A stretch of 48,167 nucleotides of DNA from a virus (lineage: Duplodnaviria > Heunggongvirae > Uroviricota > Caudoviricetes), in the IMG/VR virus record IMGVR_UViG_2861053794_000003, positions 1-48,167 of that record. The stretch is one strand, 5' to 3'. The position numbers are program-made. Shown in pieces: positions 36,001 to 39,000 of this stretch; positions within the stretch are counted from its first letter, which is position 1; the number at the start of each line of letters is the position of its first letter.

Positions 36001-39000
36001 TTACGCATGCTTTTCGGTTCCGGCTCCACCAGTACCCGGGTATTGTGGAATACCGGCATGGACTCACGGCCCGGCTTAACGACCACCAGCCCGAGTTCAG
36101 GAACCAGAACAGGTCGAAGTAATACCCGCACGTTACCTCCAGATGCGTTGCTGGAATGTACGGGACGGACGCGGTGGGCGTTCGGAATAAGGGAGCCTTA
36201 CAGAGATTATCCATTGGCGGCGGTCAAGGCTGAGGGCTTTCTCAAACTCATACCCGCGTCTGCGGTAGCACTGTATCAACCATTCGGCCTGTTCTTCAGT
36301 GCATGGGTCATGCTGGAACCAGTCAGATTTGAATGCATGAGAACGCCGCCCGTGCCTGCTGGCAGGGGCGGCAGAGTTATCCGAATTGTAAAATCTGGTA
36401 TCGTGCGCCATCAGTTTTCTCTGCTGACGCAGCAGGTGCCAGTTGTTCAGGCTGGCGCGCGGCAATATTGCCTCTGATTTCTGTTGTCGTCAACAGGCAG
36501 CGTGCTATCATCGAATAGTGTTCTATCCTACTCCGTGAGGTTTACCATGCGTACAACCCAACAATTCAGCATTACATTAACTAACGAGATGGCTGACATG
36601 GTGCGCGCCCGTGTGGCTTCCGGTGCCTATGCTTCAGAAAGTGAGGTCATTCGTGAAGGGCTTCGCGCACTGAATGAGCGCGATAAAGCAATCGAAGCGT
36701 GGTTAACGCATTCAGCCGCCCCCTCTCTTGACTCTATCCGCGAAAACCCAAACAACGGACGCTCCATTTCACAGGTTCGCACCGCGATTCGATCCGGGAA
36801 GTAATCTGCATGACATTTGAAGTCATCATTACCCCGAGGCCGAACAGCAGATAATAAACCTGCTCAGATATATCACGGAGAAAGCAGGAAGCGTCATTGC
36901 TGACAATTATGCCAATGCGCTTCTTGATTATCTTGATGGGTTTTCTACATTCCCGCATCGGGGCAATAAACGCGATGATATTCGCCAGGGAATGCGGGTA
37001 ACTCACTTCCGCCACAGAACGATTATTGCTTTTGCCGTTGATGGCAATAAAGTCTTTATCGCGGGTATTTATCATGGTGGGCAAAGCTATGAAGCCGATT
37101 TCTTATAAACTTTTACCCACATCATTCCGGTGTTAAAATAAACCGTCCGCCCCCTCTCTTACTGGCGGATTCGTAGGCTATATAAATCAAAGATCCCGGC
37201 TCGTGTATGCGTCGGGATCTTTTTTCGGTGATTTATCCCCAGCGGCAAATCGAATACACCACCAGCGCCACCGCCATTGCAATCCCTACCGTTGTGAATG
37301 CTTCAGGCCAGGTCATCGCAAAACATCCTCCACGCTTATCAGTCCCGTTTCGCTTCAGGTAGTCCATCGCCTTATCAGGCAGCTTGCTGGATTTATTGAC
37401 GCTTTTTAATGAACTGGCCAGTCGCTTAACCAGCAGTGTTAATCCGCGTACCTGATGACCCGATTCTGGCAGACTGCCGTCATTATTCCGAAGCAGATGC
37501 TCACGACTGGACTTCCAGAATATCCATGCAAAATCAACATTTGGGTCCCGGTAATTCATCCCTTCGTTGGCCCGCAGCAATAATGTTTCATGGTTTTCAT
37601 CACCGACATGAAACCTGATAAGTGCTTCAAACTGGTCGCGCCCCTCATCCGGCACTACAGGCGCTGGCGGAGCGGCGTACAGATGTCCGCCAAAGTCAGG
37701 AAGATCTCCAATGGCCTGGACGAACTTTTGTTTACCGCCGTTAATCCCTAATGGGTAGTGCGCTCTAATCTCAGCCACCGGCTCTGCTTCCAGCGATGCC
37801 AGCGTGACTTTAAATGCGGTAAGTATGTTTTTAACCTCACCGATTTTGAATACTATTTCATCACATACAAAAGATTTATCGTCTATTACCGACTCAATTC
37901 CGGTAATCATGTTCTGTAGCCATTCTTTGGTTAATTCAGCCATTTTTCATTACCTCTCTTTCGGGTAGTCTTCCGGCATTAATCGTTGTAGTAACTCATG
38001 GCTTCATTTGCAGCATCAACCGGATCAACCTCCCACCAACAATAATTTGGGTCGGTTCCTTCAGGTGTCCACGGCTCTAATTCATTTTTTGCCACATTCT
38101 CGTCGCCAGTAATTTTAAAAATCTGCTCAGAGAATTTTCTCACCCACTCGTTATATTTTTCCGCGTTAATGGTTTTCTGTGTATTTGACATAGATATACC
38201 TCCAGTTAAGGATTAAATTTTTAACAGTGCTAAATTTAAATTATTCAGTTCTTGATTTTGTCACCCTGCTTATCCGCGCTTTCGCGTTACGCTCAATCTG
38301 AATTAGCTTTTCTATATTTTTTCGCCTTTCCTGTTCCTCCTGACGCAATAGCCTTACATCATCTGCCAGTCTGGTTTCTCTTTTCGCCACAGAGAGCATC
38401 CAGTCAAATGGCTCCACAACTGCACCGCAGATTTTACAGCGGACCTGACGCTCTTTTTCGTCAACCCGGACAGAGGCGTGATGACAATATGGTCTTTCCG
38501 ATGGCTCATAAAGAAAATTAACCTGATTACGTGGGTCATCCTCTTTTACCGGAAATAAAACAATATTACTTAACTCATCTTCTGGTTTTATTTCCATGCT
38601 CCTCTCCTTTGATGCGAATGCCAGCGGCAATTGAAGCCTGATAGCTAATTTCACTCACAGCACCACCTCCTGAAAATTCCCCTGATAAAATACCAGCACG
38701 CGCTGCATAACTTCGCTCTTCCGGCACTCGCTACAGATTATGTTCTGACGCCTGTCATAACGACGTATTTCTCCGTCTGGTAACGACCAGATAAGGTCCG
38801 GATCAACCACAGGTGTTTTTTTCTTCAGCTTTGCCCTTGAGAGTTTTTTGCGGGCGTTTTGCCAGTCCTTACGAGCCTGTTCAGACGGGAATAACCCGTA
38901 ACCAGAGTTGTATACATCACCACTGGCAACCAGCTCTCTGGCGAGAACGCTCATCAGATATCTTGTCGCACCTGTCTTGGCTTCCAGTTGCCGTAACGTC

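Follow-up and report, generated by a model that had tools for sequence, protein, structure and literature searches.

Known ParDE Systems

The closest described relatives of the cassette considered here are toxin–antitoxin pairs that have already been annotated in E. coli prophages and in a Shiga toxin phage. In RefSeq the antitoxin ParD is WP_042022595.1 and its partner, a RelE/ParE toxin, is WP_042022596.1; the pair is carried by a prophage situated between potB and potC in strains 95-3322, 8178, DEF2/DEF10, FEA3, 3-72, 09A19CPO009, and CFE299. These prophages are 99.8–99.9% identical, over some 47–48 kb, to the window, as we term the whole 48,167-nucleotide stretch of DNA that was analyzed (IMG/VR record IMGVR_UViG_2861053794_000003), and their parD DNA is identical to that of the window. 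The difference lies in parE: the RefSeq-annotated prophages have a run of five C residues (C5) and an intact toxin of 99 aa, whereas the window has a run of four (C4).

The cassette of the Stx2a phage ArgO145 (KY914478; products ARW58323 and ARW58324) is 95.4% identical to window positions 36482–37200, and homology spans 36476–37387 at 94%. It too is annotated as a toxin–antitoxin pair and, as in the window, runs opposite to its neighbors, but its left-hand context is different: there, near int, are a methylase gene and several genes of hypothetical proteins. In ArgO145 the C run is interrupted (ACTCCTGAG) and encodes the same residues, and the antitoxin is annotated with a shorter start.

More distant relatives are known from structures in the PDB. 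The ParDE3 system of Mesorhizobium opportunistum (PDB 5CEG, 6X0A) resembles that of the window in its ParE fold, in having the antitoxin gene first, and in its ribbon-helix-helix ParD. The ParDE systems of P. aeruginosa (6XRW), V. cholerae (7R5A), M. tuberculosis (8C24, 8C26), and Caulobacter (3KXE) show the same fold and layout. Across this set, from Mesorhizobium to Caulobacter, TM scores are 0.62–0.73 with only 13–23% identity, and the systems are chromosomal, whereas that of the window is prophage-borne. PaaR2–PaaA2–ParE2 of E. coli O157:H7 is prophage-borne and has three genes, with an antitoxin, PaaA2, of a type other than the ribbon-helix-helix ParD; its toxin has the ParE fold (PDB 5CW7, 5CZF; TM about 0.69, about 16% identity). 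The best Foldseek match of all is to the PfiAT complex (PDB 9W3A; E = 3.8e-5, TM 0.71), where an identity of 17–18% places the relationship at the level of the fold only.

Thus the cassette is an ordinary type II parDE module of a kind already annotated in RefSeq and in ArgO145. Because it is routinely annotated in RefSeq, and because the frameshift described below is confined to one record, the finding carries little biological weight. Its practical value is for curation: parE in this record is best flagged as a pseudogene or as a frameshift that a sequencing error may have produced.

By analogy with its family, the intact module would work as follows. A ribbon-helix-helix dimer of ParD would bind an operator and repress the cassette's own promoter, and ParD would also bind and neutralize ParE, a putative gyrase poison of the RelE/ParE fold. 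Were ParD degraded or no longer replenished, ParE would be expected to poison gyrase. An intact parDE might therefore penalize loss of the prophage and so stabilize it, or might hamper competing elements. In the window record, where one C of the C5 run is absent, ParE is truncated after 14 codons.

Structure of the Cassette

The features of the cassette, in order along the window, are these.

36481–36496, no strand assigned: inverted repeat CTGTTG-N4-CAACAG, found by repeat search, overlapping the −35 hexamer
36484–36511, plus strand: predicted sigma-70-like promoter for parDE (TTGTCG, 16-nt spacer, TATCAT, with TG before the −10)
36547–36804, plus strand: parD, encoding an intact 85-aa ribbon-helix-helix antitoxin (ATG at 36547, TAA at 36802–36804)
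36810–36854, plus strand: 5′ fragment of parE (ATG, 14 codons, MTFEVIITPRPNSR, then TAA)
36832–36835, plus strand: C run, C4 here and C5 in all relatives that have the run
36836–37108, plus strand: remainder of parE (codons 10–99 and stop, −1 frame)
37189–37225, plus strand: predicted terminator-like hairpin (GC-rich stem of 9–12 bp, then TTTTTT)

Reading of the sequence from 36300 to 37400, together with a list of its ORFs, agrees with the first-pass annotation that parD is intact, that parE begins 5 nt beyond it, with its ATG at 36810, and that parE is broken at the CCCC of 36832–36835. In its starting frame parE encodes MTFEVIITPRPNSR and then meets tandem stops, TAA TAA, at 36852–36857. 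From 36821 onward the −1 frame is open, and it encodes 90 codons (EAEQQ...EADFL) to the TAA at 37106–37108. Insertion of a single C into the run in silico joins the two frames, and alignment with E. coli 95-3322 supports this repair; the restored protein has 99 aa and not 98, as first given. As written, with C4 in place of C5, the toxin frame ends after 14 codons, and the window encodes an orphan ParD together with a parE pseudogene. A translational restart in the ParE frame was considered and rejected: the first canonical start, the ATG at 36992, would yield only the C-terminal 38 aa, an implausible toxin.

The layout is otherwise that of a ParDE operon: two genes with the antitoxin first and a 5-nt spacer, preceded by a single promoter-like site and followed by a single terminator-like hairpin. 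The promoter-like site comes from a consensus scan and matches at 9 of 12 positions, a match to consensus only. Autoregulation is known for ribbon-helix-helix antitoxins of the ParD type, and for that reason the inverted repeat at 36481–36496 is a candidate ParD operator. The hairpin lies between parE and a convergent minus-strand gene of 236 aa; a simple terminator scan missed it because its loop exceeds 8 nt. Folding of the RNA from 37105 to 37235 (131 nt) gives a minimum free energy of −36 kcal/mol (z = −2.6).

The cassette lies on the plus strand, between minus-strand genes of the replication region and the DUF968–rusA–Q block, and thus runs against the early-right operon. Its borders are mosaic junctions. 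On the left, homology with phage ArgO145 starts at 36476, just upstream of the promoter-like site; on the right, homology to many other phage and metagenome contigs ends at 37107, within the parE stop codon. The earlier suggestion of a moron-like placement on the opposite strand is supported by the orientation, the promoter-like site, the hairpin, and these junctions. Comparison of sequences indicates that parDE is a phage moron, a self-contained cassette found in differing contexts, with promoter and terminator that are predicted. The clean boundaries that it shows across lambdoid phages are a minor point of general use.

Identity of ParD and ParE

ParD scores 32.2 bits against Pfam PF03693 (cut-off 21) and 53.4 bits against NCBIfam TIGR02606 (cut-off 46.2), as expected of a ribbon-helix-helix ParD. 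Assignment of the toxin used the repaired or the −1-frame sequence. Repaired ParE scores 39 bits against PF05016, ParE_toxin (cut-off 23). A profile search of NCBIfam gave no model that matches ParE. In a protein search the −1-frame translation by itself is 99% identical to annotated RelE/ParE toxins (E = 6e-53), and this match argues that parE carries a frameshift, far beyond what chance would produce. Exact copies of the repaired ParE are on record for 447 contigs, and exact copies of ParD for 542.

A single-sequence search of the PDB with ParE found no relative. When a profile of 21 ParE sequences was used, the search reached 6x0a (E = 1.1e-6) and also 7ycs, 5ceg, and 8c24, all of them ParE toxins. 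The AlphaFold model of ParE (pLDDT 82.4, pTM 0.73) led to the same family in Foldseek, where the top PDB matches are all ParE-type toxins with TM scores of about 0.7: PfiAT, Mesorhizobium ParDE3, P. aeruginosa ParDE, O157 ParE2, and PrpT, and further V. cholerae ParE2, M. tuberculosis ParE1 and ParE2, and Caulobacter ParE1. Against the model, YoeB, YafQ, and other RNases of the RelE type reach only about 0.43–0.45. The model and the profile matches together place the toxin in the ParE branch of the RelE/ParE fold, and the identities first assigned to both proteins hold on the Pfam, NCBIfam, and PDB profile matches and on comparison of folds.

Distribution of the C4 Allele

Comparison with ParE homologues, which the first-pass annotation had called for, shows them to be in frame, with C5 wherever the run is present. 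The same prophage, at 99.8–99.9% identity, is found in ten complete E. coli genomes, and within the 721-nt cassette one base differs, C5 versus C4; in the alignment with 95-3322 this is the sole difference. Five complete genomes with the same prophage were compared with the window, and all five have C5. Of 5,426 complete E. coli genomes, 34 were matched by an 81-nt megablast query with the run at its center; every one of the 34 has one additional base, and an exact C4 match was found in none of the 5,426. A variable-gap pattern that would accept anything from C2 to C7 detected the run in nine IMG/VR and seven metagenome contigs, C5 in 16 of 16, and had no match among species-representative genomes.

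Still closer relatives are found among NCBI draft assemblies and Logan contigs, where a group of the same lineage shares the window alleles at 30369 and 33895. Overall these contigs differ from the window by no more than 11 bases over 10–20 kb, or are identical to it over 4.5–6.7 kb apart from one C. Two belong to the latter class (L018, over 6.7 kb, and L020, over 4.5 kb); others show two differences in 11 kb (L032), four in 20.7 kb (L031), and one in 21.5 kb (L034, which has the deletion at 10129 too). Every same-lineage contig shown has a called ParE of 99 aa.

Products that a gene caller might derive from a C4 allele were also sought. An internal ORF of 38 aa, taken as a trace of the allele, has a single occurrence, at the cut end of a 1-kb contig, and two versions of the antisense ORF expected from C4 are not on record. 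On these comparisons the C4 allele is private to the window record.

Origin of the C4 Run

Three accounts of the interrupted toxin had been offered at the outset: genuine inactivation with the antitoxin retained, a slippage-prone phase-variable site, and a homopolymer sequencing error. The last of these is now favored over a genuine recent null mutation, which keeps considerable standing; phase variation has fallen away.

The most informative comparison comes from elsewhere in the prophage. The window has an SNP, 45224A, that changes Arg316 of the exonuclease to His (R316H), and the exact 823-aa exonuclease with this substitution is found on one contig only, in the Logan assembly of run ERR1148561. 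The single departure of that contig (L035, contig 16) from window positions 34279–48167, a span of 13,889 bases, is its C5 run, with which parE is intact. The simplest reading of this near-identity is that the same strain, or a sibling clone of it, was sequenced in two independent runs, which disagree at one short homopolymer. Since ERR1148561 shares the private SNP and yet retains the ancestral, in-frame C5, the balance tilts toward a consensus error in the window record. The C4 of parE is not an evolved or switchable feature; we consider it somewhat more likely than not that it is a homopolymer miscall in the consensus sequence.

Several observations count against a miscall. The window has 305 homopolymer runs of at least five bases, and apart from that in parE no run deviates, so that a noisy long-read assembly is not evident. 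A second indel that had seemed private, at 37342–37344, is a real and widespread polymorphism, and independently frameshifted parE alleles elsewhere show that true decay of the toxin does happen in this family.

A genuine and very recent loss of function, by slippage deletion of one C from C5 with an orphan ParD left behind, is a serious contender, to which we assign rather less than an even chance. Loss of one base from a short homopolymer is the commonest type of spontaneous indel, and there is no further homopolymer discrepancy in the 48 kb. Public assemblies of E. coli, E. albertii, and Salmonella contain at least eight further forms of ParE that are frameshifted or truncated (P0011, P0015, P0017, P0033, P0034, P0038, P0041, and P0042), and their breakpoints fall at unrelated sites; some of these may themselves be sequencing errors. 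Such independent alleles suggest that decay of the toxin with the antitoxin kept is a recurrent fate, and their recurrence is a minor point of general use. Orphan antitoxins are, moreover, common in enterobacterial genomes and are reported to be abundant in those of the Klebsiella pneumoniae complex (PMC7192599). Set against a genuine deletion are the occurrence of C4 in no other sequence, the C5 of the sole assembly that has the window's private SNP, and, a weak point, the failure of look-ups of likely C4-allele gene products to yield any C4 contig. With ParD intact, there would also be no obvious selection against ParE.

If C4 were real and had been kept, the orphan ParD might act as an anti-addiction or immunity factor that neutralizes the ParE of superinfecting lambdoid phages with the same cassette. 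Selection for such immunity is unsupported because C4 has been seen only once, and we regard the proposal as improbable. Still less credible is a phase-variable contingency locus, in which the C tract would slip reversibly and switch the toxin on and off. The location of the lesion in a homopolymer is the sole point in its favor. Tracts at contingency loci are typically at least 7 nt, whereas this one is 4–5 nt. Length variation among close relatives, by which such a locus would be recognized, is not seen: more than 50 independent sequences with the run all have it at one length, in ArgO145 its place is taken by ACTCCTGAG with no change in the encoded protein, and the other frameshift alleles are broken at unrelated sites. 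The record should not be read as support for phase-variable expression of the toxin or for orphan-antitoxin biology. The least tenable proposal, a speculative one that we hold barely worth entertaining, is a ribosomal −1 frameshift at C-CCG-AGG with the rare AGG codon in the A site, which would supply a trickle of full-length ParE: rare AGG codons promote frameshifting, and a slip after CCG would recreate the exact wild-type protein, but all homologues are in frame, so that the site is not an evolved recoding site, and it has neither a canonical slippery heptamer nor supporting conservation.

Variation in the Rest of the Window

Over 47 kb the window differs from 95-3322 by 31 SNPs, two 8-bp repeat indels, and two single-base indels. 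Compared with the five complete genomes, it is unique in 14 SNPs, in an 8-bp repeat deletion at 10129, in the parE C run, and in an extra C at 37342–37344. The alleles at 10129 and 37344 are shared by same-lineage contigs, which leaves the parE indel as the only private indel in 48 kb. Although the window holds 305 homopolymer runs of at least five bases, no run other than the parE C run is off with respect to the closest relatives. Systematic homopolymer error across the window was considered and rejected, again because the 10129 and 37344 alleles recur in the same-lineage contigs. The CCC at 37342–37344 was likewise examined as a possible sequencing error and rejected, as its exact 236-aa product is present in at least 24 contigs (NCBI drafts and Logan).

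The CC/CCC polymorphism at 37342–37344 falls in the minus-strand gene at 37233–37943, and both alleles are widespread. The CCC allele joins a 209-aa hypothetical protein (WP_052434571.1, as found in the complete genomes examined) to a hydrophobic tail of 27 aa (MTWPEAFTTVGIAMAVALVVYSICRWG), giving 236 aa; with the CC allele, the hydrophobic 27-aa peptide is a separate, unannotated small ORF.

The Host Prophage

The window is a lambdoid E. coli prophage with immunity genes of the Rac type (racR, ydaS/ydaT, dicB); its late genes are lambda-like and lie on the minus strand. The stop codon of int forms the exact end of the window, and in related genomes the prophage is located between potB and potC.

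Several other features of the prophage may be recorded. The J tail-tip gene and the tail-fibre genes flank a toxin gene of the type I Hok/Gef family (2508–2648, minus strand), which is a second moron of the toxin–antitoxin type in the same prophage. The tail gene cluster also contains a gene for an OmpC-like porin of 387 aa (8755–9918, minus strand), flanked by the gene for minor tail protein L and the next tail gene, an unusual site for a prophage porin moron. Two adjoining tRNA genes (31304–31458, minus strand) are located downstream of the Q/methyltransferase region; one is tRNA-Lys(ttt), and the other, with a CAT anticodon, is called Met by ARAGORN and Ile by RefSeq. Indels of 8-bp tandem repeats in AT-rich intergenic DNA, at 6412–6419 and at 10129, mark sub-lineages of the prophage. 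In E. coli 95-3322 and 09A19CPO009 the tail-fibre end (window 1–1115) is replaced by IS100, of the IS21 family, and in 95-3322 the counterpart of window 1–153 lies beyond the int end, implying a rearrangement there.
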